A stretch of DNA of 47,162 nt. Origin: Sodaliphilus sp. GTDB taxonomy: Bacteria; Bacteroidota; Bacteroidia; Bacteroidales; Muribaculaceae. Of the stretch, positions 5,064 through 46,485 are shown in pieces. Numbering within the stretch: the stretch's first letter is position 1; each line of letters opens with the position of its first letter. The position numbers and the translations under genes are program-made. The stretch covers positions 1 through 47,162 of the forward strand of contig JBGUHM010000047.1 in the NCBI GenBank assembly GCA_045112115.1, given 5' to 3'. The notes under the pieces were generated by a model that was not told the origin of the DNA, did not search any database, and saw nothing but the letters and a program-made list of their open reading frames with translations.

Positions 5064-5257
5064 ATTCACCTTAATTGCTGAATTTGTATATTTGTGCACC
5101 GGATTGGAAACATTCCGCAACATTTTGAAATAAAAAAGCGACATGTTGATACTTGTGATCTGAGACTGACAGACTACGACCTCAACAGAGCAGTCCTCGC
5201 TTTATGTGTTATATATTAACCGTCACCTCATGGACTGCTGGACGGTATTTAATAAAT

Positions 5258-5800
5258 ATGGAAAACCAAAGTACAAAGTACGGTAATGTACAGAAGTGTC
5301 CGCAATGTGGCGCTCCAGTGGAACCAATGGCTGTGAAGTGCAGCACATGTGGCTATGAATTTCGAAATGTTGAAGCACTTAAGTCTGCTCAACAATTGGC
5401 TGCAAAACTTGAAGAAATTGAAAACGCATATCGAGATAAGGGTATGGGTTTCATGGGAAGTGCTGATCTAAGAAAATTACAAGAAACTGCCACAGCAATT
5501 AAAGTCTTTGCGATACCAACAGCCAAAGAAGACCTGTTGGATTTTGCTATATCAATGCAAAGTAGATGGAATACAGAAGAAGTTGATTATTTGCGAAAAG
5601 CTTTTAAAGCTAAATATGACGAATGCATCAACAAAGCAAAGATTCTATTCCCGAACGATCCCATGTTCCAGGGCTTATTTGACCAACATAACAAAGACAA
5701 TAAAAAGATATCGCCCAAGACCAAGATGTTGATAATTATTGGACTGGTGATGTTATTAATGCTTGCGATGATAATCGGTCTTGGATTTGCATTTAAATAA
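5258..5800 (+). CDS. zinc-ribbon protein with a C-terminal transmembrane anchor
   Basis: Begins MENQSTKYGNVQKCPQCGAPVEPMAVKCSTCGYEF (a C-x2-C ... C-x2-C zinc ribbon). A helical region follows, then the C-terminal TM MLIIIGLVMLLMLAMIIGLGFAF. I took the internal ATG of the 5204 ORF as the start. Confidence 0.6.
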   Translation: MENQSTKYGNVQKCPQCGAPVEPMAVKCSTCGYEFRNVEALKSAQQLAAKLEEIENAYRDKGMGFMGSADLRKLQETATAIKVFAIPTAKEDLLDFAISMQSRWNTEEVDYLRKAFKAKYDECINKAKILFPNDPMFQGLFDQHNKDNKKISPKTKMLIIIGLVMLLMLAMIIGLGFAFK

Positions 5801-5840: not shown

Positions 5841-7217
5841 ATGGCATTATTTGGAAGAGGTAAAAGTGGCGGAATGATGAATGTCATCCGTTGCGACGAG
5901 GAACAATACCTTGTGTGGAAATGGCGCCCACTTGGGCAAGACGTTAACTCAACGTCGCGCGAGAACAGCATACGTTACGGCAGCAGTCTGCGAGTGAAGG
6001 ACGGCGAGGTTGCTGTGTTTGTGTATAAACAGAAAGACGGCACGATGCAGGACTTTATTGAGGGCCCATACGATGACACTATAAAGACGGCCAACTTCCC
6101 AGTACTTTCAAGCATTGTGGGACTTGCTTTCGGTGGAGAGTCGCCGTTCCAGGCCGAGGTCTATTTCATAAACCTACAAGGGAACAATCAAATCAAGTTT
6201 GGAATTCCTTATTTTGATGTGACCGACCCTAACAATGATTACCTGCCGGTACCTGTAGCTGTTCGCGGGACAATGACTTTCGCTCTTGAGGATTATCGCA
6301 ACTTCATAAAGCTAAACCGCTTGATAAATTTTGACTTAGAGGCGTTTAAGACACAAATTAGAGACACTATGATTCGCAAGATCAAAGGCATAATTACCAA
6401 TGTGCCTCATGATTTGAATTTGCCTCTGGTAAGGATTGAAAGCAAGGTTGACGAGATATCCGACTTGGTTGAACAACGCCTTAACGGTCGCATGGACGAG
6501 TTCGGTGTTACAATGAAACACATCGACTTATCAGCAATCGAATTGGATAAAGAGAACTCCAATTACGCGGAACTCAAGGCACAAACAGCCAACATAATCT
6601 CCAACACACGCATTATGCAGAGTGAAATTAATTTGCGTAATATGGACGACATGCAACGTCTAAACACGCAAAACATGGAAGAAACTTTGCGAATTCAGCG
6701 TGAGGAAGCTCAGAGAGCGCAGAAACTTCAGACTGAAACAAACTTCCTGGGCGCACATGCGCTTAATCAGCAGACCGATGTGCTCAAGACCGGTGCACAA
6801 AGTCTTGGACAAATGGGCCAGATGAATCTCGGAGGCGGTTCCGGTATGAACCCAGGAGGAGCGATGGCTGGAATGATGATGGGAGGAGCGTTAGGACAGC
6901 AAATGGCTGGTATGATGCAGAATGTTGGCCAGCAAGTGCAGATGGGAATGCAACAGCCTCCTCAGATGCCGCAGTCACAGTACTTTGTTAACATCAACAA
7001 TCAGCAGACGGGGCCGTTCTCCGTACAACAGCTTGCCCAGATGGCCCAAAGCGGTCAGGTGACGGCACAGAGCTACGTATGGAAGCAGGGAATGCCTCAA
7101 TGGGATATTGCAGGCAATGTGCAGGAACTGCAGTCATTGTTTACCCCGGCAATGCCTCCAATGCCTCCAATGCCTCCAATGCCAGGCGGCGGTAACACAC
7201 CTCCGCCAATGCCTTGA
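5841..7217 (+). CDS. Band-7/SPFH-like protein (PF13421-like family, often annotated virion core protein T7 gp14-like) with a C-terminal DUF4339/GYF-like domain
   Basis: The N-terminal ~250 aa are paralogous to the protein at 44028..45344. Next come a Q/N-rich coiled region and a G/M/Q low-complexity linker. The motif YFVNINNQQTGPFSVQQLAQMAQSGQVTAQSYVWKQGMPQWDIAGNVQELQSLF matches DUF4339. The protein ends in a PPMPPMPPMP tail. Confidence 0.8.
   Translation: MALFGRGKSGGMMNVIRCDEEQYLVWKWRPLGQDVNSTSRENSIRYGSSLRVKDGEVAVFVYKQKDGTMQDFIEGPYDDTIKTANFPVLSSIVGLAFGGESPFQAEVYFINLQGNNQIKFGIPYFDVTDPNNDYLPVPVAVRGTMTFALEDYRNFIKLNRLINFDLEAFKTQIRDTMIRKIKGIITNVPHDLNLPLVRIESKVDEISDLVEQRLNGRMDEFGVTMKHIDLSAIELDKENSNYAELKAQTANIISNTRIMQSEINLRNMDDMQRLNTQNMEETLRIQREEAQRAQKLQTETNFLGAHALNQQTDVLKTGAQSLGQMGQMNLGGGSGMNPGGAMAGMMMGGALGQQMAGMMQNVGQQVQMGMQQPPQMPQSQYFVNINNQQTGPFSVQQLAQMAQSGQVTAQSYVWKQGMPQWDIAGNVQELQSLFTPAMPPMPPMPPMPGGGNTPPPMP
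7151..7186 (+). repeat. 9-bp coding tandem repeat (aatgcctcc)x4 encoding PMPPMPPMP
   Basis: Direct repeats are visible in the sequence at the 3' end of the 5841..7217 CDS. Confidence 0.7.
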
Positions 7218-7235: not shown

Positions 7236-7577
7236 ATGGATGACAACAGTTTTTTCTCGGTTGACAGACTTGTTGAGTTTGGACTTGGTATGGCCATGGC
7301 CCAACAGATGGTAGGCATGATGAACCAGACCATGCAAACCATGCAGATGCCAGGCAGGCTGCAGAGGGTACAAGTAGAACCAATGTTCTATGTTGTTTTG
7401 GATAATAATCCTGTTGGGCCATTAAGCGATAAAGATTTGGCTCAACTTGTGCTGAATCACAAAGTGACCAAAGACACCTTATCATGGATGCCAGGTATGA
7501 CAACCTGGAAACCCATTGAGCAAGTGCCAGCAATACTGAAAGTAATCGCATTGACACCATCACCAATCAATATATAG
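7236..7577 (+). CDS. small stand-alone DUF4339/GYF-like domain protein
   Basis: An M/Q-rich N-terminus is followed by MFYVVLDNNPVGPLSDKDLAQLVLNHKVTKDTLSWMPGMTTWKPIEQVPAIL, which is DUF4339-like. A good AAAGGAG Shine-Dalgarno sits 8 nt upstream. The gene begins 18 bp after the Band-7 gene. Confidence 0.7.
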   Translation: MDDNSFFSVDRLVEFGLGMAMAQQMVGMMNQTMQTMQMPGRLQRVQVEPMFYVVLDNNPVGPLSDKDLAQLVLNHKVTKDTLSWMPGMTTWKPIEQVPAILKVIALTPSPINI

Positions 7578-7581
7578 TAAG

Positions 7582-7935
7582 ATGAAAATAAGTATAATAC
7601 CAACAATTATAGCATTGGCTTTAGCCACACTTATCGGCGTTCTTATCTGGTCGTGGTGTTCATCTGCCGATAATGCCACTGCAATAGGAATCACAACGGC
7701 GGCATCACTTGCTCTCACCTTAATCCCGAGTATGGGACTGAAGCTGGAAAGTGGACGGGTGCAGACTAATGTTCGTGTGTTATCAGTCGTTTTTGCGCTG
7801 ATATTTCTGGTGGTTGCTATTATCATGTGTTTCATAACGAGTAAGACAATAATAACCTACTATGTCATAGAAGGTGTTATAGCATTGATATTTATTTCAA
7901 TCCTATATGGCTTAATTAAAATCAAAGATGTTTAA
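7582..7935 (+). CDS. small polytopic membrane protein (about 4 TM helices)
   Basis: Four hydrophobic stretches of about 20 aa each. The gene sits directly downstream in the same orientation, at the start of the low-GC region. Confidence 0.55.
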   Translation: MKISIIPTIIALALATLIGVLIWSWCSSADNATAIGITTAASLALTLIPSMGLKLESGRVQTNVRVLSVVFALIFLVVAIIMCFITSKTIITYYVIEGVIALIFISILYGLIKIKDV

Positions 7936-15967: not shown

Positions 15968-17536
15968 ATGAAAAGACTTTTACTTCCATGCTTAATGGCC
16001 GTGATGCTTTGCACGGCTGCAAGTGCACAACAAACCCTCACAGTTGCCGAGGGCACCAATGAGCACAGTTGGGCACCGTTTGCCACCGGTTCTTATTGGA
16101 GTAAACCTGGCTGTCGTACGCAGGTGATTTATCCCGCGGAGTCGTTGACAGCCATGGTGGGTTCCGATATCTATTCGATTAAATTTTATGTGAAAACTTC
16201 CGGCGGAATGTGGATGTCGGGCGGTAAGAGCCGCATCTCGATGGGAACGACCACGATTAGCTCGTTCTACAACTCATTCGTCGAGAATCTAACTCCTGTC
16301 GCCGTTGATGTCCCTGGTCCGGAAACGGGTATGACCGAATTGGAGATTGTTTTCGATGAGCCGTTCACTTATACTGGAGGCAACTTAGTGTATGAGTGGG
16401 AGCTGACCGAAGCCGGAGACTATACGACCTATGTCACAAGTTTCGTCGGCGTAAGGGGCGACAAGTATACCATGGCGTTCTTGCCTGCTGGCGATAGTAT
16501 GATGTACCTAAATACAGAAAAGTTTACACCGAAGACCACATTCACCTACGGGCACGTGTTCGTAACTACGAAACAGCTCGACTTCGGTGAGTTGCTGCCC
16601 AACTCGCAACGAGAATTGTCGGTGAAGGTTAAAAACGTAGAATCGACAGCCGTCACTCCTGTCATCAGCGGTTTGGAGGGACCGTTCAGCAGTGATTACA
16701 CCCCGACAACTCTTTCTCCTGGCGAGACATTGACCATTCCTGTCAAATTCACACCTACCGAGCTCGGCGAGTTCACGGGTGGACTAACCATTCAATGTGG
16801 CGAGTACGGCAACTATGAGGTTGCGCTCAAGGGCAATTCCGTTCGCTCGATTGACATAACCGTGTGCAACGGCAAGGACAAGACTCACAACCTGCCTATC
16901 CACGGTACATACATGGACGAGAAGAATACCTTCTCCCAGATGATTTATCCAGCTGAAAAACTCACTGATGCAGTCGGCCACAAGATTACGAGCATCAAGT
17001 TCTACGCAACCGAAGGCCTTCAGTGGAGCAAACCCACGCTTGAGTTGAGCTTAGGCGAAACTGACCAGATTGAATTCGGTTCAATAATTACTGACCTTTC
17101 AGTTTGCAGCACTACATCTCCTTCAGTCGGTGACACTGAGTTGGTGTTCAACTTCAACGAGCCATTTGAATACAATGGCGGCAATTTTGCTGTGCAGTTG
17201 AAGATTACCAAGGCAAGCAATTTCTATGGCGCATATTTCTATGGTGAGAACCAGGAGGTAAACACCGGCTACTGCCTGTATTACCTCAACAACGGCCAGT
17301 TAACCGATACCGAACTCGTGAAGTTCTTGCCAAAAATGACCATCACCTTCGCCGACCAGGCTTTAGCCATTCCGGGCGACCTTAACGGCGACGGCAATGT
17401 GAACACGGGTGACGTGAGCGCACTTTATAAAGCTCTGTTGGCCGGCGCCACCGACGCGATGTACGACCTCAACGGCGACGGCAACGTGAACACAGGTGAC
17501 GTTTCTGCACTCTACAAAATCATTTTAGGAAACTAA
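15968..17536 (+). CDS. secreted protein with two internal repeat domains, an ASH/HYDIN-like Ig domain and a C-terminal type-I dockerin-like repeat pair
   Basis: A signal peptide is present. The protein ends in DLNGDGNVNTGDVSALYKALLAG…DLNGDGNVNTGDVSALYKIILGN, two 22-24 aa Ca-binding F-hand dockerin repeats. Confidence 0.8.
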   Translation: MKRLLLPCLMAVMLCTAASAQQTLTVAEGTNEHSWAPFATGSYWSKPGCRTQVIYPAESLTAMVGSDIYSIKFYVKTSGGMWMSGGKSRISMGTTTISSFYNSFVENLTPVAVDVPGPETGMTELEIVFDEPFTYTGGNLVYEWELTEAGDYTTYVTSFVGVRGDKYTMAFLPAGDSMMYLNTEKFTPKTTFTYGHVFVTTKQLDFGELLPNSQRELSVKVKNVESTAVTPVISGLEGPFSSDYTPTTLSPGETLTIPVKFTPTELGEFTGGLTIQCGEYGNYEVALKGNSVRSIDITVCNGKDKTHNLPIHGTYMDEKNTFSQMIYPAEKLTDAVGHKITSIKFYATEGLQWSKPTLELSLGETDQIEFGSIITDLSVCSTTSPSVGDTELVFNFNEPFEYNGGNFAVQLKITKASNFYGAYFYGENQEVNTGYCLYYLNNGQLTDTELVKFLPKMTITFADQALAIPGDLNGDGNVNTGDVSALYKALLAGATDAMYDLNGDGNVNTGDVSALYKIILGN

Positions 17537-17552
17537 TCTTTTAAATCTGGCA

Positions 17553-18446
17553 ATGATGAAAAAGATAACATTTTTATTATTGTTGATGTTGGTGACGTCA
17601 TCGGCTTGGGCATTGCCGTTTGTGACTACGCCAAGTCCTTCGACTTATCCCATCCATTGGTATAAGTTGAAAATCAACGGGATGTATTTGTTCACTACGC
17701 CCTATGATGAATGGGCGGTCGAAGCAAACTCTACCTGTGAGGACACTGATGATTACATGTGGTGCTTCGTGGAATTTGCTTCCGGGAAGATTGCTGTTTA
17801 CAACAAGGGCCGGGAGAAGTATATGGAAGATTGTTTCTACTTAACACCAAATACATCAGCCTCGTACATCAACCTTGTTGAGGCCGGCAGCGGAAACAAC
17901 TTCTACATTTACTACATGCTGAACAGCACTCAGAAAATGTATCTGGATTATGATTACGAAAATGGGCAGAGTTCTTGGAGCTATAAGGTTCACGCATTCA
18001 CGGTGGAAGGTGAAATTATTGAAGACCCAGAATTGACAGATGTACCAAAGATAACCGTTGAACCCAGTAGTGACTATTATGTGATTCGTGCTACCGGCAA
18101 CGGCGAAGTGAAACTCTATGTGGATGGTGTAAGGGTGGGTAACCCATACACCCACGGACGCCCCCTTTATGTGTACAATAAAATCATCATCAAAGCCACG
18201 GCAAAGGAAGCGGGCAAGCTTGAGAACTCCGCCACAATGTCAGCCATCTTGGCTCCGCGAGGCAAACCTGAGGCCAAAGTAGGCGACATCAACTTTGACG
18301 GCTTTGTTAACACCGGTGACGTGAGCGAACTATACAAGGCCATTCTGTTCGGCGCCACCGATGCTATTTGCGACTTGAACGACGACGGCTCGGTTAATAC
18401 TGGTGACGTAAGTACGCTGTACAAATTCATCATTGGCAATAATTGA
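17553..18446 (+). CDS. secreted dockerin-like repeat protein (N-terminal domain paralogous to the next gene)
   Basis: A signal peptide is present. The protein ends in DINFDGFVNTGDVSELYKAILFG…DLNDDGSVNTGDVSTLYKFIIGNN. Confidence 0.8.
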   Translation: MMKKITFLLLLMLVTSSAWALPFVTTPSPSTYPIHWYKLKINGMYLFTTPYDEWAVEANSTCEDTDDYMWCFVEFASGKIAVYNKGREKYMEDCFYLTPNTSASYINLVEAGSGNNFYIYYMLNSTQKMYLDYDYENGQSSWSYKVHAFTVEGEIIEDPELTDVPKITVEPSSDYYVIRATGNGEVKLYVDGVRVGNPYTHGRPLYVYNKIIIKATAKEAGKLENSATMSAILAPRGKPEAKVGDINFDGFVNTGDVSELYKAILFGATDAICDLNDDGSVNTGDVSTLYKFIIGNN

Positions 18447-18508
18447 TGTAAGATGTTTTTTTGTATGCAATGTTGTTTCTTATATTTTTTAAATAATATA
18501 ATTGCAAA

Positions 18509-20143
18509 ATGAAAAAGATAACCTTTCTATTGTTATTGATGTTGGTGTCGGTTACCGCTTCGGCGCTACCTTTTGTGACCACGTCAAGTCCCACGGCTTA
18601 TCCCATCCACTGGTATCAGTTGAAAATCAACGGTAAGTACCTATATTCCTATACCGGGCAATGGGTGGATGTAGATGCGAGTAGTTCGGCATCGACCGCC
18701 GATGCTTACCTATGGTGTTTCGTCACAACATCTTCGGGCAAGACATTGGTGTTCAACAAAGCTAAAAGGCAATATATGCGCAGCGGTTACTTGTTCACCA
18801 CCGACATGGCAAATAGTGCCATCAACTATGTGGTGGAAGGAACCGGCAACACGTTCTACATCTGCTTCAAAGCTGAGGGTACGACATTTTATCTAGATTA
18901 TGATGAGGACAACGGTTTGCATTCCCCGTCATGGAAGATGAATGCATTCACGGCCATTGAAGCTTTGGTCCAGAACGAGGCGCCCACTCCCAGCGGCGAA
19001 CTCGAGCTGACCCTCGACGAGTATGATGAATACTGCATGCTTTCGGCCGGTTACACCGGAAACGAAGAGCATACGGTGACCCTTAATGTAGATGGGCGTA
19101 ACGTGAACAATCCATACAGAGTCACGCGTACCTATCAAGATAAAAATCTTGATGTCATAGCTACAGTGACGTTCAACGATATGGATCCTGTTGTCGTCCA
19201 GCAAACGGTAACCGTTCCGGCCAAACCGCTAACTGATCTCACAGGAGAAGTCATATTTGATGTGGAAGAGAATGAGAGAAACTGTGTGATTTCGGTTTAT
19301 TATGTCGGTCCAGAATCTTATTCGCTTGCGCTATATGCCAACGGTCAACTGGTCAACGAGCCTTATACAGTGGCACGTACTGCGGTAGACCAACATATCA
19401 CCATGAAAGCAGTGATTACGGCATCGGGAAAGAATCCTCTTGTCGTCGAGGAAGTGGTGACAATCCCCAAGTATGTGGAGCCAGAGCTCGATTTGACATT
19501 CACCGCTTACAGTGTGTCCAGTAATGTTTCTAATCCTACGGGAGGACAAGGATTTATGAAACTCTTCGACAAGAACCCTAACACCAAGTGGCTTGTGTTA
19601 TTCGACACCGAGGACTGGCAGACAGTCTTTGTCGAATTCCGTAGCGACAAGCCATTCGTTCCCACAGGTTACGTGATGACCACGGGCGACGACACACAGA
19701 ACAATCCCAACCGCAATCCCAAAGCGTGGAAAATCTATGGTAGAGTGGATTGGATGGAAGACTGGGAGATTCTTGCCGATGTTACCGATGGCGCGGCTGC
19801 AGGCTTGGGTTCAGGCTCTGTGACCGACTATAACTTCGACATCACCGGCCTCAAGAAAGAATACCGTCAGTTCCGCTTTGAGGTGATCGATGTGAACGGT
19901 GTTGAGAGCAGCGGCTTGCACGTTTTCCAGCTTGCAGAGCTGCGTTTAAGAGGCAAGGCGGCGAGCAGCGAACCTTCTGGCGACCTGAACGGTGACGGCA
20001 ACGTGAACACGGGTGACATAAGCGCACTCTATACAGCCGTGCTGTCTGGCTCGACCGACGCAATGTACGACATCAACGGCGACGGCAACGTGAACACCGG
20101 CGACGTCTCGGCCCTGTATGCAATTATTCTCGGGTCGAATTGA
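18509..20143 (+). CDS. secreted protein with Ig-like repeats, an F5/8 type C (discoidin)-like domain and a C-terminal dockerin-like repeat pair
   Basis: The N-terminal ~150 aa are paralogous to 17553..18446. FMKLFDKNPNTKWL…NPKAWKIYG…QFRFEV is discoidin-like. The protein ends in DLNGDGNVNTGDISALYTAVLSG…DINGDGNVNTGDVSALYAIILGSN. Confidence 0.8.
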   Translation: MKKITFLLLLMLVSVTASALPFVTTSSPTAYPIHWYQLKINGKYLYSYTGQWVDVDASSSASTADAYLWCFVTTSSGKTLVFNKAKRQYMRSGYLFTTDMANSAINYVVEGTGNTFYICFKAEGTTFYLDYDEDNGLHSPSWKMNAFTAIEALVQNEAPTPSGELELTLDEYDEYCMLSAGYTGNEEHTVTLNVDGRNVNNPYRVTRTYQDKNLDVIATVTFNDMDPVVVQQTVTVPAKPLTDLTGEVIFDVEENERNCVISVYYVGPESYSLALYANGQLVNEPYTVARTAVDQHITMKAVITASGKNPLVVEEVVTIPKYVEPELDLTFTAYSVSSNVSNPTGGQGFMKLFDKNPNTKWLVLFDTEDWQTVFVEFRSDKPFVPTGYVMTTGDDTQNNPNRNPKAWKIYGRVDWMEDWEILADVTDGAAAGLGSGSVTDYNFDITGLKKEYRQFRFEVIDVNGVESSGLHVFQLAELRLRGKAASSEPSGDLNGDGNVNTGDISALYTAVLSGSTDAMYDINGDGNVNTGDVSALYAIILGSN

Positions 20144-38807: not shown

Positions 38808-39311
38808 ATGGGACTTGATTTGATTACATCCTCGTTTCTGGGTTTGCGCGACAAACTGCACCACATCGCATTGCAATATTTGCGGAGTGATGAGGATGTG
38901 CAAGACGCCCTACAGGATACTTGGCTCAAGTTGAGCGACAGCGATGTTGCGACATCACAGGAAGCGAAAAACAAACTCGTTGCCGTTCTCAGGAACACTT
39001 GTATCGACAGAATAAGAAAAGCAAAAGCTGTATCTATCAACGATATAGGTGTTAGTGAAATGCCCCATTACTGTGTCGATATCGAAGATGTTGAACATCT
39101 TGAACAACTTCTTCAACGACAGTTGACCCCTTTACAACAACGTATCTTCAATCTCATCGTTCACGACGGTTGTGATTATGGGCAGATTGCCGAACAGCTT
39201 TCGATGAATGTTGAGGCGGTGAGAATGAACATGTGTCGAATACGCAAAAAAATCAGTGAAACCTATAAAAAGTTGAACTATGAAACAAAGCGAAATGGAA
39301 ATCAAGCTTGA
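38808..39311 (+). CDS. RNA polymerase ECF-type sigma-70 factor
   Basis: The region-2-like segment reads VQDALQDTWLKL. The region-4 HTH reads LTPLQQRIFNLIVHDGCDYGQIAEQLSMNVEAVRMNMCRIRKKI. Confidence 0.8.
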   Translation: MGLDLITSSFLGLRDKLHHIALQYLRSDEDVQDALQDTWLKLSDSDVATSQEAKNKLVAVLRNTCIDRIRKAKAVSINDIGVSEMPHYCVDIEDVEHLEQLLQRQLTPLQQRIFNLIVHDGCDYGQIAEQLSMNVEAVRMNMCRIRKKISETYKKLNYETKRNGNQA

Positions 39312-39756
39312 AGAGTTGGAGCAACTGTGCTTGCTGTATCGTGACAGCCGACTTACGGTCCTGGAGGAAGCCGAGTTGGAATTCGTGCTATTGTGTTGTG
39401 ACTACGACTCTCCCCTAATCAAAGAAACAAGAGACTTGATGGCGGTTTCACATGTTCTGAAATTGCGGGAGATTCCACATTCGCACAAAAGCCTACGGCA
39501 GTGGTTCGTGCGCGTTGCCGCTTGTCTGGTGATGGTTGCCGGTGTTTTTGGCGTCTATCGTTATATTCATCCCAATGTAAACGACAACTGTGTTGTCTAT
39601 ATCTCTGGAAAGAGGGCGAACGATGAGGTAGCCCGCAAAGTCGCAGAAGCCGATGTGGAAAAAATGCGTCGGTTCATGGTTGTTGTCAACAGGCAGAAAG
39701 CATCGGAGCAGGCTAAAGTAGAAGAATTCATGAATCATATAAATAAAACGAGATGA
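39280..39756 (+). CDS. putative single-pass membrane anti-sigma factor
   Basis: It overlaps the sigma gene end and has one TM (WFVRVAACLVMVAGVFGVY). The call rests on position within the ECF operon only. Confidence 0.45.
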   Translation: MKQSEMEIKLEELEQLCLLYRDSRLTVLEEAELEFVLLCCDYDSPLIKETRDLMAVSHVLKLREIPHSHKSLRQWFVRVAACLVMVAGVFGVYRYIHPNVNDNCVVYISGKRANDEVARKVAEADVEKMRRFMVVVNRQKASEQAKVEEFMNHINKTR

Positions 39757-40136
39757 AACGACTGGTAATCATTATATTTAGCGTGATAATCGCTGTTTCG
39801 GCCTTTGCCAAACCGCCGAAACTCAATGTTGAGAACCTGTTTGACGGCCGCTTCAACAACACTAAGAACGTTACCGTTTCCATTTACCGGAACAATGGCA
39901 ACTACTATCGCGGCATTACCGTTAAGAACAACCCTGACATTATACAGAAGATTGCCAATGCCCTGGAAAAAGATGTTCCTAAAGCATCGGACTATTCAAA
40001 TCATCAGGGCGAGGACGGCTGGTACACATCGTTGCAAGTGGTCAACAACGGAGAAACTATCTATATAGGGTTGCAACGAGACCGGCATGGCGGTGGATTT
40101 TTCTTTATTCAAGGAAAGGAAAAAGCATTTAAATAA
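39753..40136 (+). CDS. secreted DUF4252-like protein of the ECF operon
   Basis: An ATGA overlap with the previous gene. A signal peptide is present and the protein is about 127 aa. This matches the typical Bacteroides ECF-associated gene order. Confidence 0.5.
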   Translation: MKRLVIIIFSVIIAVSAFAKPPKLNVENLFDGRFNNTKNVTVSIYRNNGNYYRGITVKNNPDIIQKIANALEKDVPKASDYSNHQGEDGWYTSLQVVNNGETIYIGLQRDRHGGGFFFIQGKEKAFK

Positions 40137-40153
40137 CAATCAATCAGTAAATT

Positions 40154-42304
40154 ATGAGCAGACTTTTTGCGGCTGTCATTATGATGGCTATGCTTCCTGT
40201 ATCTCTTTTGGGGCAGGAACTAAACGATTCGACAGCAATTGATTCCATAGGTGACTACTGGAGTAAGGTGCTGGAACTTAACGAGGTAGTGGTTATGGGG
40301 TACCGCACGGTGCTGAAACCGGAACCTGACCGTATTGTCTATCTAACCAAAAACGACTCCTACGCAAAAGGATTGAACGGTATCGAAGTGTTGGACCGCA
40401 TACCCCGCGTTTCGGTGACTGGCGACGAGGTTTCGGTCGCGGGCAAATCGTCGGTGAGATATATCGTCGACGGGCGTTTGTTGGAAATGCCTGACGATGC
40501 TGTCGCTATGCAACTGAAGAACCTTCAATCGTCGGGTATCGAGAAGATAGAACTGCTTACCACCCCTCCGGCAAAATATGGCGCCGGCACCAACGTGGCG
40601 TACATCAGCATCACCACACGCAATGAGTCGTTGGGCACACGCGGCAACTTGTGGGCGGGCGGAAATATTCGGGAGCAATTCAACTATTTGCTTGGAGCGC
40701 GTATATCGCACACCACTCGAAAGGTCGAGATTTCGGCTGATGCCAGTTGGAGCGACAACAAGGGCATCAATGATCTGGACCGAAATTATTCTTTTAGCGA
40801 TTACGAAAAAGTGTCGAAACGCAGCAACCATTTCACTAACAGGACACTGGGTGCAAACGCACTCTTAAAATACAAATTCACCGACCGCATATGCGCCGGC
40901 GCCATTGTCAATTTCAGTTCCAACCGACTCAATAGTCAACTTAATGATGTCACAGTTGAACACGACATGGTTTTCAAATCGTATAACCATTCTCCGTCGC
41001 GACCTAATAATGCGTTGACGTTGACAGCATTTAATGATTGGCAGTTTGATGATAGCGGCAAAATGCTTAGTATTACATATAATTATTTCAACAAGTCGTC
41101 ACGTTCGTTTTCCGACGTGCTGACCGAATGGACTGGCAATGAGTCGCATCTTTCAAATGAAGGGCACAACCGCTATCATATCCATTCAGTTAAACTTGAC
41201 GCTGTTTTGCCGTTTGTCGGATTCAAGGTAGAGACGGGTGCGGCTTTCACCGGGATTGGCAATAATACAATGTTGAGAGTCAAGCGTTTCGAACTCGGCC
41301 AATGGATTGACGATTCTTCCCAAAGCAACCAGTTTGACTATGACGAGAATACAGCCGCTGTATATGTGGGTGCGGAAAGAAACTTTACCGACTCATTTTT
41401 CGCCAAGCTTGGGCTTAGATATGAGCATACCAGTGTTAATGGCCGTCAACATATTGGCTCCGTGAGCCATGTCAATAGTTACTCTTACGTGTTTCCCTCG
41501 TTGAGTATGAGCTGGAGCCCGTCTGGAGCGGGGCAACTGGCCCTCTCCTACTCCATGGGAATCACTCGGCCGAATTTTGCTGACCTAAATCCGTTCCGTT
41601 ACTATACCACAACAAGCGATTACGTAGCCGGTAATCCCGACTTGAAACCGGGCATCGCCCACAATGCCGAAATCAGCTACAGCTACAAGGGCGTCTATGC
41701 CGTGTTATACAACTCTTACAACCACAACTCGATAAGTTATGTGACACGATTCAATGGCGATGGCAGTCAGCAGACTGTCCCAGAGAACTGTGTCGACAAC
41801 AATAAGGCCGGCCTCTATGCCTCCTACTATAGAACAATACTTGACTGGTGGAACATCAACGTTGGGGCCGAGGTGTTTCACAACTATGCCAAATCGCGAA
41901 TCGATGATTTCAGAGAACTTGACCAAAGCGATTGGAGCGGCAAACTTGAGCTAAATACATCGTTTATGCTCACCCGTCGGCATAATCTTATTCTCAACCT
42001 GCGCTTCAGCCACTATTTCCCGTATAACGAGCGCATGATACATTATGAGTCGATGTCGCTGATTGGCTGCGAGCTCCGATATATGTTGCTTGACAACCGC
42101 CTTACGCTGACGGCTTCGGTGAATGACCCGTTCGGCTGGAATATTACCCGCTCCACCGCCTATTATAAAGATTACACAATCAAGACCCGCAACAATATCC
42201 ATTCACATGCTGTTCAGTTCCGAATCTCTTACACATTCGGAGGCAACAAGGTCAATAATGTCTACCGCGACACAAAGGAACGCGAGTCTTCCCGCTCCTA
42301 CTGA
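40154..42304 (+). CDS. outer-membrane beta-barrel protein (TonB-dependent-receptor-like, OMP_b-brl_3 type)
   Basis: A signal peptide and a plug-like N-terminus are present. Alternating beta-strand patterns follow, and the C-terminus reads …RISYTFGG. Confidence 0.75.
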   Translation: MSRLFAAVIMMAMLPVSLLGQELNDSTAIDSIGDYWSKVLELNEVVVMGYRTVLKPEPDRIVYLTKNDSYAKGLNGIEVLDRIPRVSVTGDEVSVAGKSSVRYIVDGRLLEMPDDAVAMQLKNLQSSGIEKIELLTTPPAKYGAGTNVAYISITTRNESLGTRGNLWAGGNIREQFNYLLGARISHTTRKVEISADASWSDNKGINDLDRNYSFSDYEKVSKRSNHFTNRTLGANALLKYKFTDRICAGAIVNFSSNRLNSQLNDVTVEHDMVFKSYNHSPSRPNNALTLTAFNDWQFDDSGKMLSITYNYFNKSSRSFSDVLTEWTGNESHLSNEGHNRYHIHSVKLDAVLPFVGFKVETGAAFTGIGNNTMLRVKRFELGQWIDDSSQSNQFDYDENTAAVYVGAERNFTDSFFAKLGLRYEHTSVNGRQHIGSVSHVNSYSYVFPSLSMSWSPSGAGQLALSYSMGITRPNFADLNPFRYYTTTSDYVAGNPDLKPGIAHNAEISYSYKGVYAVLYNSYNHNSISYVTRFNGDGSQQTVPENCVDNNKAGLYASYYRTILDWWNINVGAEVFHNYAKSRIDDFRELDQSDWSGKLELNTSFMLTRRHNLILNLRFSHYFPYNERMIHYESMSLIGCELRYMLLDNRLTLTASVNDPFGWNITRSTAYYKDYTIKTRNNIHSHAVQFRISYTFGGNKVNNVYRDTKERESSRSY

Positions 42305-42363: not shown

Positions 42364-42477
42364 GCCGCTTTCAGCCGAGATTTTGCCGTTTGAGAAAAGT
42401 TGTGGTGAAGATAAATATAACTGCGGAACGGCCGTTTTGGTCGCTCCGCAGAGGTATAGTGTTTATTGTTGATTGTT

Positions 42478-43545
42478 CTACTGTCCGGCGAGGAATCGTT
42501 GCGCGCCCATGGCTCGCATCTGCTGGCTGTTGTTTAGGATTTTCTTTTTTCGCACAGTGTAGAAAATCCAGCTGCCGACAAACCCGAGACCTCCTATTAT
42601 GGCGAACGCCCATCCCAGTTCGCTTACCGATTGGCTTTGAGAGAGTATCAAACCAAGGATTCCGAGGATAGCGGTAACCCAGAACAGCCAGTTGAACTTG
42701 TTGACGAATTTGCGTTCGCTCTTGTCTTCCGGGTTGGTAAGGCGTTCCTGGCGTCCGGTGCCGTCCATGATAAAATAGTACTTCTGCTGCTGGTAGTTGT
42801 AGTATACGAACCAGAATGGAACAAGCACGAGCACGCCCCGTTGAGCGAGATCGACCGCGACATTCTTCTGCAGGTCGCTCACGTCGCTACCGGCTTGCTG
42901 GCGTATGCCGTCGTCGGCAATCTTATCGGCCATTGCCTGACCGTAACGGCTCCAGATTATTTCCGGGTCGGTGTTCACGGCCAGCGTGGTGAGGTTGGAG
43001 TCGGGGTCGTTACCAATGATGGCGGGGTTGTACATTTGAGTAGAGTTCACCGTATAGGGGAACGTGGCTGTGAAGGCCTTGAGCTCTTCGGGGATGTCGT
43101 CGCCTTCATAGGCCAGACACAGGAAGGAGAAATTGCCGAAGGCATTGCCGTTGACATAGCGTTTGCGCGAGCGTCGAGTGCCGTTGTCGTCGTAAGTCTC
43201 CCTCACGTTGCCGCTCCATGAAGCCTGATAACGGCCTTCGTAGAGGTACATAGGCAGATAGGCCTTCATGGTGTCGTCGGCATGCAGGTAGTCGAAGACG
43301 TCTTTCGGCACATAGGGCCGACGGATAAGCGCGTTCACCAGATGCTGGCCGAAGTCTTCCTCACGCGTGGTGAAAGGAATAATGCGCTCGGGCTGCTTCA
43401 TCGATTTCTGCACCGCGATGGCATTGGGGTTTCGCAGCATGGTGTGGCAATACGGGCATTCGACCTGTGTCTTAAACTCGTTGAATGATGTGATGTTTGC
43501 CCCGCAGTTGGGACATTTCACTTGTTGTAATTCTAATGTTGCCAT
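42478..43545 (-). CDS. zinc-ribbon protein with a central domain of unknown function and two C-terminal TM helices
   Basis: The N-terminus reads MATLELQQVKCPNCGANITSFNEFKTQVECPYCH. The C-terminal hydrophobic pair is WLFWVTAILGILGLILS / WAFAIIGGLGFVGSWIFYTV. Confidence 0.65.
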   Translation of the reverse strand: MATLELQQVKCPNCGANITSFNEFKTQVECPYCHTMLRNPNAIAVQKSMKQPERIIPFTTREEDFGQHLVNALIRRPYVPKDVFDYLHADDTMKAYLPMYLYEGRYQASWSGNVRETYDDNGTRRSRKRYVNGNAFGNFSFLCLAYEGDDIPEELKAFTATFPYTVNSTQMYNPAIIGNDPDSNLTTLAVNTDPEIIWSRYGQAMADKIADDGIRQQAGSDVSDLQKNVAVDLAQRGVLVLVPFWFVYYNYQQQKYYFIMDGTGRQERLTNPEDKSERKFVNKFNWLFWVTAILGILGLILSQSQSVSELGWAFAIIGGLGFVGSWIFYTVRKKKILNNSQQMRAMGAQRFLAGQ

Positions 43546-43551
43546 ATTGTG

Positions 43552-44016
43552 TTATTCGTTTGTTTGATTGTTTTCGTTCTCGGTTTGTTTTTTTGCCTCT
43601 TCAAGCTGTTGGCGGTCACGCTCAAGGTTCTTGCGGGTATGATCGTTCATCAAATATCCTGTGAGCAGCACAGCCATGGCCAAGGCGAAGAGCACGACCT
43701 GTGTGATAAGCGCCACAATGTAAGCGGTGTCGCTTTTATACCACCAGAACAGGAAAATAGCGGCTACGACACATTCTACAATAAAATAAAACGTTGCCAC
43801 AGCTACGAGCGACCAACTCAAGACTTTTTCTTCCCCATTCTGCTTATTGAGCAGAGATGGCAGCAACAAAGTGAGAAAGGCCACATGGAGGAAAGCGTAA
43901 GAGACCCATCTCGTGGCATTCATCGACCCTGTGTCAACCAGCAGGAAGAACAATACATTGAACACCAAAGGGAATAGCAGCATCAAAACTATCGATGCGA
44001 TTGTTGTACCTTTCAT
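43552..44016 (-). CDS. small polytopic membrane protein (4 TM) with a charged C-terminal tail
   Basis: Four hydrophobic helices, then a coiled charged C-terminus. It lies between the Band-7 and zinc-ribbon genes. Confidence 0.6.
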   Translation of the reverse strand: MKGTTIASIVLMLLFPLVFNVLFFLLVDTGSMNATRWVSYAFLHVAFLTLLLPSLLNKQNGEEKVLSWSLVAVATFYFIVECVVAAIFLFWWYKSDTAYIVALITQVVLFALAMAVLLTGYLMNDHTRKNLERDRQQLEEAKKQTENENNQTNE

Positions 44017-44027
44017 AATAGTTGGGT

Positions 44028-45344
44028 TTAGAGGTTGGCAAGAACTTCACGTTTCACAGCATCGTATTCGCTTTGCTCGATGAGCCCGGCGTCAAGTAGT
44101 TTTTTCAGCTTAGCCAGTTTCTCCATCGGGTCGTCGGCCGGTTGCTGTGCAGGGGCGGCGGTTCCCGCGGCTACACCCGCCATGGCACCTGCAGCCATAC
44201 CTGTAGCCATTTGCTGTCCAGGGATAGGCGGTTGCTGTCCAGGGATAGGCGGCTGCTGTCCGTGGATAGGTGGTTGTTGTCCATAGGGCTGCTGGCCGTA
44301 AGGCTGCTGTCCATAGGGCTGTTGTCCGTAAGGCTGCTGTCCATAGGGCTGCTGTTGTCCATAGGGCTGCTGGCCGTAAGGCTGTTGTTGTCCATATGGG
44401 TTCTGGTTTATGCCGCCGAATGTGTTGGCAGCCATCTGGCCGAAGGCACCGCCAGCGGCCATACCCATGCCCATACCCATGCCCATACCGGCCATGCCGC
44501 CTACTTGTCCCTCGTTGGTGCTTACGCCGTGAGCCATGTCCTGCATGATTTCCATGCCTTTGATGGTCTGGTAACCGGCGCCCATGAGGTCATACTCACG
44601 CTTGCGTGCGTAGGCGTTCTCGAGATGCTGACGGTTGGGGTCGTCCTCGGGGATGTCCATCGCCGAAATCGAGAAATTCTGCAGCTTAAGGCCATATTCA
44701 CCGAGTATCTCGGCTATCATGGGGGTGATCTTTGTAGCGAAGGTGTCGAGTTCGGCGCAGATGCCCAGCAACTCCTCGCCGCTGTTCTTCAACCCTTTGG
44801 CGATAGTAGATTTAATCGACTGTTGGAATTGGTTTGAGAAATAACGTTCCAAATCGCCGGGTTTGAGTTGGTTGAGATTCGAACCTACAAGTTTGGTGAT
44901 AAACTTGGCGCTGTCGTCAATCATTATTTTATAAGAGCCACGTGCCTTGATGCTGGTGGCTATGCCTTGAACCGGGTCGCGCAACTGGATGGGCGAGTCG
45001 GTACCCCAGAGAATCTCTTGAGTGTCGCTCTTGCGGATGAAATACACGAAGCAGTTGAACGTGGAGATGCCACCGCTGAGCATGTTGCGCAGGCGGCTCA
45101 GGAACACGTAGTTCTGCGTTGAAAGTATATATCGTCCGTTGGTGAAAATCTGCTGAATCTCACCGTTCTTCACAAATACGGCCTCTTCGCCTGGGTTGAC
45201 TGTAAGCACCGAATGGGTGTTGAAGTCTTCTTCCGGTTGTTTCCAGACGAGCACTCCTGCAGGTCCTGAATTTTTCAACGACTCCAAGATGTGTTTCTTT
45301 CCACCTTGGTAATTGGCTTCATTTGGATTGCGAAATAAACTCAT
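44028..45344 (-). CDS. Band-7/SPFH-like protein (paralog of 5841..7217) with a GM-rich linker, (PYGQQ)n/(PPIPGQQ)n repeats and a C-terminal SHOCT domain
   Basis: The N-terminal ~270 aa align with 5841..7217 (MSLFRNP…VLVWKQPEE vs MALFGRG…YLVWKWRP). The C-terminus [31 protein letters not shown] is a SHOCT motif. Confidence 0.8.
44208..44398 (-). repeat. in-frame coding tandem repeats: 21-bp x3 (PPIPGQQ) plus 15-bp x about 9 (PYGQQ)
   Basis: Near-identical DNA units ccatagggctgctg(g/t)ccgtaaggctg… are read directly from the sequence. Confidence 0.8.
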
Positions 45345-45395: not shown

Positions 45396-45403
45396 TGCAA
45401 AGA
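45396..45403 (-). promoter_or_regulatory. TAnnTTTG -7 box (TATCTTTG on the minus strand) upstream of the second Band-7 operon
   Basis: The reverse complement of caaagata lies about 48 nt upstream of the ATG at 45344. It is preceded by a weak hairpin plus T-run after tatC. Confidence 0.4.
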
Positions 45404-45444
45404 TAATGTCTTTTGACGAAACGGACAAGAAAAACGGCGTTTTT

Positions 45445-46251
45445 TTACTCTTTTGGCGGTGCAGGCACCAGCCGGCCGCTCAATTCGTAAAGAAGGTAGA
45501 TGGGGAGGAATACCACGGAGAGTGTGAACGGGTCGCCTGTGGGGGTTATGATGGCCGCCACCACCAGCAACACCACTATGGCGTGCCGGCGGTATTCCTT
45601 AAACATCCCGCGGTGGAGAATTTCCAACTTGCCCAACAGCCAGCACAGCAGCGGTAACTCAAAGACCACGCCCATGATGAAAATCAGTGCAATAAACGTG
45701 TCCATATAGGAGTCGAGCGAAATCTGGTTGGGCACCATGTCGCTTACGTGATAGTCGGCAAGGAAACGCAGCGTTACCGGAAACACCACATAATATCCCA
45801 CTGCCACTCCGATAAAGAACATAATCACCCCGAAACCGAAGGCGGTACGCACCCCTTTCTTCTCATTGGGGTAAAGCGCAGGAGACACGAAACCCCACAG
45901 AAAATAAAGAAGCAGCGGGAAGGTGAGCACGATAGCCAGCCAGCATGATGTGCTGATGTGGATAAAAAACTGCGAGGCCAGTTGGATGTTGATAAGGTTT
46001 ACCTTGAAACCTTCGGTGGAGAAGTCGGGGCCGTAAGGAATGGCCTCGGTGATTTTCTGGAACAGCCTGTATAGAGGGAAATCGCCGCGACAGGGCGCCA
46101 GAATCACGTTGTCGAAAATGTCGGGCATAAAAGCAAACAGAGCCACGGCCGCGATAATCACGGTCACGGCTATGCGAATCAGAACCCACCTGAGTGCTTC
46201 CAGGTGGTCCCAGAACGTCATCTCTTGAAGTGGCCCGTCGTTGTCTGCCAT
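45445..46251 (-). CDS. tatC: twin-arginine translocase subunit TatC
   Basis: MTFWDHLEALRWVLIRI… with six TM helices, typical of TatC. Confidence 0.9.
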   Translation of the reverse strand: MADNDGPLQEMTFWDHLEALRWVLIRIAVTVIIAAVALFAFMPDIFDNVILAPCRGDFPLYRLFQKITEAIPYGPDFSTEGFKVNLINIQLASQFFIHISTSCWLAIVLTFPLLLYFLWGFVSPALYPNEKKGVRTAFGFGVIMFFIGVAVGYYVVFPVTLRFLADYHVSDMVPNQISLDSYMDTFIALIFIMGVVFELPLLCWLLGKLEILHRGMFKEYRRHAIVVLLVVAAIITPTGDPFTLSVVFLPIYLLYELSGRLVPAPPKE

Positions 46252-46263
46252 TGGACGAGAGTG

Positions 46264-46485
46264 TTATTTCTCTTCTTTCTTCTCGTCCTTCTTATTGTCG
46301 ACAGGAGCCTCAATTTCCTCCTTTATTTCGTTGAGGCCGTCCTTGAACGAGCGTACGCCTTTCCCCATCCCTTTCATCAGCTCAGGAATTTTCTTGCCAC
46401 CGAACAAAAGCAGAATGACGAAGGCGATAATGAGAATTTCGGCCCAGCCAAGGTTCTGGAATAAAAGTAAAATCGTATTCAGCAT
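46264..46485 (-). CDS. tatA: twin-arginine translocase subunit TatA/E
   Basis: [36 protein letters not shown] matches the TatA TM-hinge-amphipathic helix. The true start may differ slightly. Confidence 0.75.

Follow-up and report, generated by a model that had tools for sequence, protein, structure and literature searches.

The window analysed here is the whole 47,162-nucleotide (nt) stretch of contig JBGUHM010000047.1 from Sodaliphilus sp. (Muribaculaceae; assembly GCA_045112115.1), and near one end it carries three genes, hereafter operon 2, that encode an SPFH (band 7) protein (SPFH2), a small protein with four transmembrane (TM) segments (TM4_2) and a zinc-ribbon membrane protein (ZnR2). 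A second locus with an SPFH gene, operon 1, lies elsewhere in the window and encodes SPFH1, ZnR1 and TM4_1 (Table 1). The genes of operon 2 follow each other head to tail on the minus strand, with spacings of 11 nt between SPFH2 and TM4_2 and of 6 nt between TM4_2 and ZnR2. The 100-nt gap between tatC and SPFH2 contains TATCTTTG, a match to TAnnTTTG, the -7 promoter consensus of Bacteroidetes, and a hairpin located 27-57 nt past the ZnR2 stop codon is followed by the T-rich tail TTATATTTATCTT. Because of the 11- and 6-nt gaps, the promoter-like motif upstream and the hairpin downstream, operon 2 is, as judged by its anatomy, a self-contained three-gene operon that would be expressed as one transcription unit. 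A preliminary description of this DNA had listed the three genes with their strand and coordinates, and all these descriptive elements were recovered. It had also credited the operon with a TAnnTTTG promoter of its own; the motif is indeed present 54 nt upstream of the SPFH2 start codon, and its position is suggestive of an operon promoter, but the match by itself is weak evidence: chance alone predicts 25.8 +/- 5.2 occurrences of TAnnTTTG in the window, and 36 are observed.

Table 1. Features of operon 2, of its upstream neighbours and of operon 1 (positions in the window).
Feature	Position	Strand	Remarks
SPFH2	44028..45344	-	438 aa; first gene of operon 2
Band_7_1/SPFH domain	44643..45221	-	SPFH2 residues 42-234; Pfam match
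Gly/Met-rich hydrophobic stretch	44442..44507	-	SPFH2 residues ~280-301; conserved in orthologue alignment
P/Y/G/Q-rich tandem repeats	44211..44393	-	SPFH2; (PYGQQ)~8 then (PPIxGQQ)3
SHOCT-like bihelical C-terminal tail	44040..44123	-	SPFH2 residues 408-435; sub-cut-off Pfam match and conservation
TM4_2	43552..44016	-	154 aa; 4 TM segments; middle gene of operon 2
ZnR2	42478..43545	-	355 aa; YdjG-like membrane protein; third gene of operon 2
C4 zinc ribbon, CPNC...CPYC	43432..43521	-	ZnR2 residues 9-38; invariant cysteines
Core alpha/beta domain	42700..43416	-	ZnR2 residues 44-282; ends in PFWFVYYxY...YxFxMDGxG motif
Two-helix TM hairpin, then basic tail	42553..42699	-	ZnR2 residues 283-331; TM prediction and model
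Promoter-like match to TAnnTTTG, TATCTTTG	45398..45405	-	54 nt 5' of SPFH2 ATG
Terminator-like hairpin, then TTATATTTATCTT	42421..42451	-	13-nt arms, 5-nt loop; closes operon 2
tatC	45445-46251		directly upstream of operon 2
tatA	46264-46485		upstream of operon 2
ZnR1	5204..5800	+	198 aa; zinc-ribbon, tail-anchored; family other than that of ZnR2
SPFH1	5841..7217	+	Band_7_1 + GYF_2 paralogue, from another conserved module
TM4_1	7582..7935	+	multi-TM protein of operon 1

The first protein of the operon matches the Pfam family Band_7_1 (PF13421) at E 1.2e-31, its 110.4 bits exceeding the cut-off of 24, and the same family was matched by 51 of 51 SPFH2 orthologues. Prediction of TM or hydrophobic segments found none in SPFH2, which on sequence grounds appears to be a soluble SPFH protein of the Band_7_1 (YdjI) type without a membrane anchor. 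Searched against solved structures, the SPFH2-family profile gave only marginal matches to prohibitin and stomatin chains (E 0.006-0.6). Beyond the SPFH domain, the residues G282, G288, G290, G292, M293, G294, A296 and F301 of the Gly/Met-rich stretch are invariant or nearly so across the 51 orthologues, and similar stretches are also seen in SPFH1 and in a YdjI-like protein of Enterococcus. The (PYGQQ)n repeats reported for this protein in the preliminary description were confirmed at 44211-44393, where about eight PYGQQ(Q) units are followed by three PPI(H/P)GQQ units and where Tandem Repeats Finder resolves a period of 15 nt with 6.7 copies and one of 21 nt with 3.5 copies. Both the type of the repeat sequence and its length vary among orthologues, in agreement with the disordered linker as which we read this region. 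The C-terminal tail had been described as SHOCT, and this assignment is better supported for the family than for the protein itself: the tail is nearly invariant in the alignment of the 51 orthologues and SHOCT (PF09851) is matched independently by 31 of them (E <= 0.01; best E 3.8e-7), but the match of SPFH2 itself (E 3.3e-5, 23.9 bits) stays under the cut-off of 27. Calling SHOCT an oligomerisation motif was not justified, as the paper that defined the domain tested oligomerisation and found no support for it (PMC3581485), while a role in anchoring proteins at the inner leaflet of the membrane has been proposed (PMC11237479). The combination found in SPFH2 is an established one, since SHOCT occurs most often together with PF13421; that work treats the architecture of single proteins, and no partnership with zinc-ribbon or 4-TM proteins is described in it (PMC3581485).

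ZnR2 begins with a C4 zinc ribbon whose cysteines C11, C14, C30 and C33 are invariant among 15 homologues, and this single ribbon aligns with the second ribbon of two-ribbon relatives. A sequence search of solved structures with ZnR2 returned generic ribbons (eS27) only, and Ribosomal_S27e was rejected as an assignment for the protein, the match being to the ribbon alone. AlphaFold2 modelled ZnR2 with a predicted local distance difference test (pLDDT) score of 85.6 at full length and of 90.3 for the trimmed core, which consists of about 240 residues with long curved beta-strands packed on helices; YpeB is the best match of this core in the Protein Data Bank, and the core is described here as a YpeB/PepSY-like domain. 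The TM hairpin that follows is flanked by Lys/Arg at both ends, from which we infer that the bulk of ZnR2 faces the cytoplasm. A word-index search gave 241 homologues, and a search of 1.84 billion cluster representatives with a profile hidden Markov model of the family retrieved 2803 at E <= 0.001, so that the ZnR2 family must be regarded as very large. Many of its distant members (e.g., P0161, P0180 and P0250) are 560-850 amino acids long, and in these the core is followed by about three TM segments and then by a large C-terminal WG_beta_rep, FGE-sulfatase or BspA-type leucine-rich repeat (LRR_5) domain; this domain is predicted to lie across the membrane from the ribbon, in what looks like a sensor-like architecture. 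For ten distant relatives, looking up their clusters yielded neither protein names nor organisms.

The middle protein, TM4_2, is predicted to have four hydrophobic or TM segments and matched no family in Pfam, NCBIfam or PADLOC. The usual member of its family, which is one of Bacteroidales, is longer, with 224-231 amino acids comprising the four TM segments and a helical tail of about 95 residues, and the 225-residue orthologues likewise showed no TPM domain and no other match in Pfam or NCBIfam. A short form of 141-154 amino acids without the helical tail is found in the window and in the loci L001 (6470-6916) and L002 (6568-6993), and the TM gene is absent altogether from five Prevotella-type loci (L003-L006 and L049) and from L051; the middle gene is reduced in one clade. 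Loci with a short or absent TM gene mostly carry the longest P/Q-rich linkers in their SPFH protein, which is then 407-450 amino acids long versus a typical 342-401, with L001, L022 and L026 as exceptions to the pattern. In L033 (5551-6989) and L040 (5564-6989) an extra open reading frame of about 460 codons with about five predicted TM segments stands between the TM and zinc-ribbon genes. A search with the TM4_2-family profile was dominated by low-complexity words and gave 18 matches, none of them annotated, and identification of TM4_2 as a holin or as DUF1218 was rejected, both matches lying well under their cut-offs.

The idea that these three genes form a system had been made to depend on their recurrence in other genomes, and they do recur. 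One genome per species was scanned, yielding 62 loci with a ZnR2 homologue, nearly all from Bacteroidales (Prevotellaceae, Muribaculaceae, Bacteroidaceae, Alistipes, Barnesiella and Parabacteroides) and one from Flavobacteriaceae. Among the 54 informative loci, those with at least 2.3 kb of upstream DNA, 42 keep SPFH, multi-TM and zinc-ribbon genes on the same strand and in this order, and in six more the zinc-ribbon gene comes immediately after the SPFH gene, without an intervening TM gene. Operon 2 is a recurring system and not a chance arrangement. The neighbours of the triad differ from locus to locus and are housekeeping in kind (tatAC, a tRNA synthetase, trigger factor, ClpXP). Eight loci (L014, L016, L029, L032, L038, L039, L058 and L061) have ZnR2 homologues that are 27-44% identical to the protein of the window, mostly within triads of the Bacteroidales type, and belong to metagenome-assembled genomes labelled Akkermansia, Akkermansiaceae, Ruminococcus flavefaciens, Paenibacillus, Clostridia/Clostridiales, Acutalibacteraceae and Faecalibacterium; these labels are likely binning or labelling errors. 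In L007 (5895-8044) and L009 (1357-3559) a ZnR2 homologue stands directly after tatA-tatC with neither an SPFH nor a TM gene, which looks as if the arrangement of the window had lost the two leading genes of the operon.

Three uncharacterised, membrane-linked proteins with neighbour genes that vary between genomes could also point to anti-phage defence or abortive infection, with a membrane-associated SPFH complex that senses infection and disrupts the membrane, and TM4_2 has a weak similarity to a family of holins that would fit such a role, its 17 bits (E 0.006) staying below the cut-off of 28.4. The three proteins, however, matched no defence model in PADLOC-DB, no relatives were found in 2.9 million viral contigs, the flanks consist of housekeeping genes and not of defence islands or mobile elements, and the sole characterised relative acts in envelope stress (PMC8581546), all of which makes a defence function very improbable. 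The same must be said, if anything more strongly, of a service to Tat export. That tatA-tatC lie directly upstream in the window, that tat genes are near the triad in L002 and that they immediately precede the ZnR2 homologue in L007 and L009 all speak for a Tat accessory function, but tat genes occur within 7 kb in only 3 of the 62 loci, the flanks are unrelated in the other loci whose neighbours were looked up, and operon 2 has a promoter-like motif of its own.

The pairing of the SPFH and zinc-ribbon proteins extends well beyond Bacteroidota. Using tblastn against annotated plasmids and chromids, we found a ZnR2 relative directly 3' of a gene annotated as "SPFH domain-containing protein" in Paracoccus, Vibrio, Tsukamurella, Comamonas and Enterococcus, five further lineages that span three phyla besides Bacteroidota, and the SPFH partner belongs to Band_7_1 in all five. 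Profile comparisons connect the ZnR2 family with the Paracoccus protein (probability 98.3%, E 2.4e-14, 258 columns, an alignment that takes in the terminal PFWFVYY...MDG motif) and with the Enterococcus protein (probability 97.3%, E 2e-11, 115 columns), and these two proteins are in turn similar to each other along 86% of their length (E 3e-28). A terminal motif PxW...Y.F.(M/V)(D/N)G is common to ZnR2 and its relatives, having been recognised by eye in the Enterococcus protein. When a word-index search was run with the latter, its best 120 matches were all from Enterococcus. In the Paracoccus locus (L067, 1272-3472) the pair is preceded on the same strand by genes for a DUF2927 protein and for TelA (toxic anion resistance), another protein tied to envelope stress.

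Among these pairs, it is the C-terminus of the SPFH protein that varies. Most Bacteroidales have SHOCT in this position, but GYF_2 is found in Paracoccus, Vibrio and Tsukamurella as well as in L053 and L054, both of which are full triads, a double zinc ribbon in Enterococcus, and HTH_17 in Comamonas. That C-terminal adaptors are exchangeable within the SPFH-ZnR2 pairing holds on this comparison of sequences, and the notion of swappable adaptors, which had been derived from the two operons of the window, is upheld by other genomes and not by operon 1. A Band 7/SPFH + GYF architecture has already been published (PMC2034487). Proteins of that class resemble SPFH2 in joining a Band_7_1 core to a small C-terminal adaptor, and its members in Paracoccus, Vibrio, Tsukamurella, L053 and L054 are also paired with a ZnR2-family gene; unlike them, SPFH2 carries SHOCT, while the GYF_2-bearing SPFH1 of the window is paired with another family of zinc-ribbon proteins.

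A clue to the nature of the module comes from Enterococcus, where three consecutive genes encode a Band_7_1 protein that has zinc ribbons at its C-terminus, a two-ribbon TM protein and a protein with a TPM domain. This agrees with the architecture published for Bacillus subtilis, in which YdjI consists of a band-7 domain and a C-terminal ribbon, YdjG of two ribbons, a YpeB-related NTF2-like domain and a TM segment, and YdjH of a TPM domain (PMC11237479). The relationship to YpeB, obtained here as a structural match for the ZnR2 core, was named independently for YdjG in that study (PMC11237479). The formation of membrane foci by YdjI, a soluble protein in B. subtilis, depends on YdjG and YdjH; YdjI also interacts with YdjH and with PspA and is required for PspA foci, and its loss alters membrane fluidity (PMC8581546). 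Operon 2 resembles the pspA-ydjGHI operon in several respects: its SPFH protein is likewise soluble, has no TM segment and possesses a low-complexity region near the C-terminus; the adjacent zinc-ribbon protein combines a ribbon with a YpeB-like domain and TM helices and is homologous to the Enterococcus protein from the YdjI/G/H-type locus; and a third membrane protein is encoded in the same operon. The preliminary description, otherwise sound in its account of the genes, had overlooked this kinship (PMC8581546, PMC11237479).

We therefore favour the view that operon 2 is probably a Bacteroidales variant of the YdjI-YdjG SPFH module, for which a role as a membrane-docked scaffold can be proposed by analogy; the most likely function of SPFH2, ZnR2 and TM4_2, inferred in the same way, would be to form a scaffold on the cytoplasmic side of the membrane that serves in envelope stress or in organising the membrane. 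Because YdjG and YdjH bring the soluble YdjI to the membrane in B. subtilis, we propose that ZnR2 and TM4_2 would act as docking sites for the soluble SPFH2 on the inner side of the cytoplasmic membrane. SPFH proteins generally oligomerise, and the docked SPFH2 may do so as well, giving a scaffold that would organise or protect membrane regions under envelope stress. The exchangeable tail, SHOCT in the present case, could then couple the scaffold to a lineage-specific partner or to the surface of the membrane. As no pspA adjoins operon 2, the module would have to act either without PspA or with a PspA encoded elsewhere in the genome.

Several points weigh against this reading. The second zinc ribbon, the TPM-domain YdjH and the adjacent pspA of the B. 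subtilis operon all appear to be absent here. Set against the published description of YdjG, with its two ribbons and single TM segment, ZnR2 has one ribbon and a TM hairpin; the third protein is a 4-TM protein instead of a TPM protein, the SPFH tail is SHOCT instead of zinc ribbons, and the gene order is SPFH-TM-ZnR versus pspA-G-H-I. The homology between ZnR2 and B. subtilis YdjG, moreover, is traced through the Enterococcus and Paracoccus relatives and the published architecture. In six of the 54 informative loci a ZnR2 homologue is kept without an SPFH gene nearby, so the pairing of the two is not obligatory, and the TM4_2 of the window is without the cytoplasmic tail seen in most orthologues.

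The missing pspA is a recurrent feature. Single-sequence phmmer searches with E. coli PspA and PspC as queries (E <= 10), a method of limited sensitivity, found neither in the window nor in 152 loci; the precomputed Pfam hits available for neighbouring genes included no PspA family, and no pspA is listed among the annotated features of the five cross-phylum loci. The SPFH-ZnR2 pair thus commonly exists without an adjacent pspA. The occurrence of the pair in Bacteroidota, Bacillota, Actinomycetota and Alpha-, Beta- and Gammaproteobacteria leads to a bolder and rather unlikely extension of the YdjI-YdjG reading, namely that the Band_7_1 protein and its YdjG-like partner constitute an ancient two-gene, PspA-independent membrane module into which output adaptors and sensor domains can be plugged. 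If this were true, the pair would link events outside the membrane to the assembly of an SPFH scaffold inside, with the WG repeats, LRR and FGE-sulfatase domains as plug-in extracytoplasmic sensors of the zinc-ribbon partner; the connection with the Psp response in B. subtilis would be one specialisation among many, the Bacteroidales 4-TM protein with its helical tail would be a new third subunit, and in this genome the GYF_2 domains of operon 1 might bind the proline-rich repeats of SPFH2, coupling both modules.

The same large C-terminal domains can also be taken to mean that ZnR2 is the active component of a membrane-tethered signalling device, for example a regulator acting through its TFIIB-like ribbon, with the SPFH protein as a mere modulator. 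The sensor-like architecture of the distant relatives with their three or so TM segments, the published speculation that the YdjG ribbon might bind DNA (PMC9239133) and the HTH_17 domain on one SPFH partner, that of Comamonas, all lend some colour to the idea. We nevertheless consider it improbable: ZnR2 itself is anchored by a hairpin with a loop of about 10 residues and has no extracytoplasmic domain, one C4 ribbon is not in itself a DNA-binding domain, and no transcription factor is conserved beside the triad.

The comparison with operon 1 was at the centre of the preliminary description, in which the two loci were taken as paralogous modules built on the same three-part logic. Pairwise alignment of the SPFH proteins, one of the checks it had proposed, gave significant similarity, with 26% identity over 232 residues (E 9e-13), and SPFH1 and SPFH2 can be considered paralogues of one Pfam family, Band_7_1. 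The zinc-ribbon partners, on whose similarity the claim had been staked as well, have only the ribbon of about 27-30 residues in common: ZnR1 matched the ZnR2-family profile with a probability of 65% over 27 columns, and the two family profiles matched each other with a probability of 93% over 30 columns without any reliable extension. A 123-residue tblastn match of a ZnR1-family protein to ZnR2 was set aside as evidence of longer homology, profile confidence being high over the ribbon only. The ZnR1 family is built from a helical N-terminal domain, the ribbon, a helical domain and one TM segment, and its members, mostly of 210-430 amino acids, carry an initial helical domain of some 60 residues (LIQSVIADGxITxKERxVL...) that is absent from the ZnR1 of the window, where tblastn found no remnant of it upstream. 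Between TM4_1 and the TM4_2 family, profile comparison detected no homology (probability 9%), and the gene order of the two operons is unlike. The three-part logic therefore recurs at the level of architecture, with a different order and with one of three components demonstrably homologous, and the claim of paralogous modules stands for the SPFH proteins and falls for both of their partners.

In a survey of 80 metagenome loci with an SPFH1 relative, a GYF match was present in 79, mostly including a separate small GYF protein, TM4_1 in 59 and a ZnR1-family gene in 70, while a ZnR2 homologue was found in none. An origin of both operons from one ancestral SPFH/zinc-ribbon/4-TM triad, in which the adaptor alone was swapped, would account for the paralogous SPFH proteins, for the presence of a zinc-ribbon membrane protein and a small multi-TM protein in each operon and for the conservation of both modules in other genomes. 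It is contradicted by the differing architectures of the zinc-ribbon partners outside the ribbon, by the TM partners, by the gene order and by the lack of ZnR2 at operon 1-type loci; furthermore, operon 2-type triads with a GYF_2 tail exist (L053 and L054), which places the adaptor swap within the YdjG-linked lineage. Such a duplication is already largely refuted and we hold it to be hardly probable. With zinc-ribbon partners that share the ribbon only and TM partners without detectable relationship, operons 1 and 2 are better described, on sequence evidence, as distinct modules, each conserved in its own right and each employing a Band_7_1 protein. The PPIHG/PPIPG repeats of SPFH2 (44211-44393) and the two GYF_2 domains encoded in operon 1 (5841-7217 and 7236-7577) occur in the same window, and SPFH1 ends in a PPMPPMPPMP tail of its own. 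GYF_2 belongs to a class of domains that bind proline-rich peptides, and cross-talk between the GYF_2 domains of operon 1 and the proline-rich repeats of SPFH2 is possible.

In classical SPFH operons, stomatin or flotillin is encoded with NfeD (YuaF/YqiJ) and HflK/C with FtsH. Operon 2 is similar to these in that an SPFH scaffold is co-encoded with a small membrane partner and an oligomeric membrane assembly can be expected, and differs from them in the lack of a membrane anchor in SPFH2 itself; with Pfam, neither TM4_2 nor ZnR2 matched NfeD. SPFH/flotillin-like proteins are widespread, but the way in which the anchorless Band_7_1 class arrives at the membrane has, to our knowledge, been studied in B. 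subtilis only. The Band_7_1 + SHOCT architecture and the YdjI-YdjG-YdjH operon with its role in B. subtilis are already known. The literature searched contained no description of a Bacteroidales triad that includes a 4-TM, helical-tail protein family of its own, of a YdjG-like protein with one ribbon and a hairpin anchor, of an SPFH-YdjG-like pair conserved across phyla without adjacent pspA or of the range of adaptors on the SPFH partner. Gut and rumen Bacteroidales carry their own three-gene version of the module, in which the SPFH and zinc-ribbon proteins would make up a defined and testable core complex. Parabacteroides gordonii DSM 23371 (L034), which has a TM protein of full length, is a culturable carrier of the triad, and nature provides a series of adaptor swaps for probing the roles of the C-terminal tail. 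The result extends a known module and corrects an over-read paralogy, and it overturns nothing; its value, for specialists, lies in guiding the choice of experiments and not in surprise.

Other parts of the window deserve a brief mention. A cluster at 38808-42304, convergent on the 3' end of operon 2 and ending at 42304, encodes an extracytoplasmic function sigma factor, a probable anti-sigma factor, a DUF6108 protein and an outer-membrane protein similar to TonB-dependent receptors; it is kept in the near-identical contigs L069-L071 and not in more distant loci. At 15968-20143, three consecutive genes encode proteins with a C-terminal type I dockerin (Pfam E 7e-10 to 3.5e-7), one of which also has Ig-like (ASH/HYDIN) domains, and such a trio is unusual given the otherwise Bacteroidales-looking genome. 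Finally, a gene for a eukaryotic-type Ser/Thr protein kinase of 444 amino acids (1183-2517; Pkinase, E 5e-35) lies on the strand opposite to operon 1, some 2.7 kb upstream of it.

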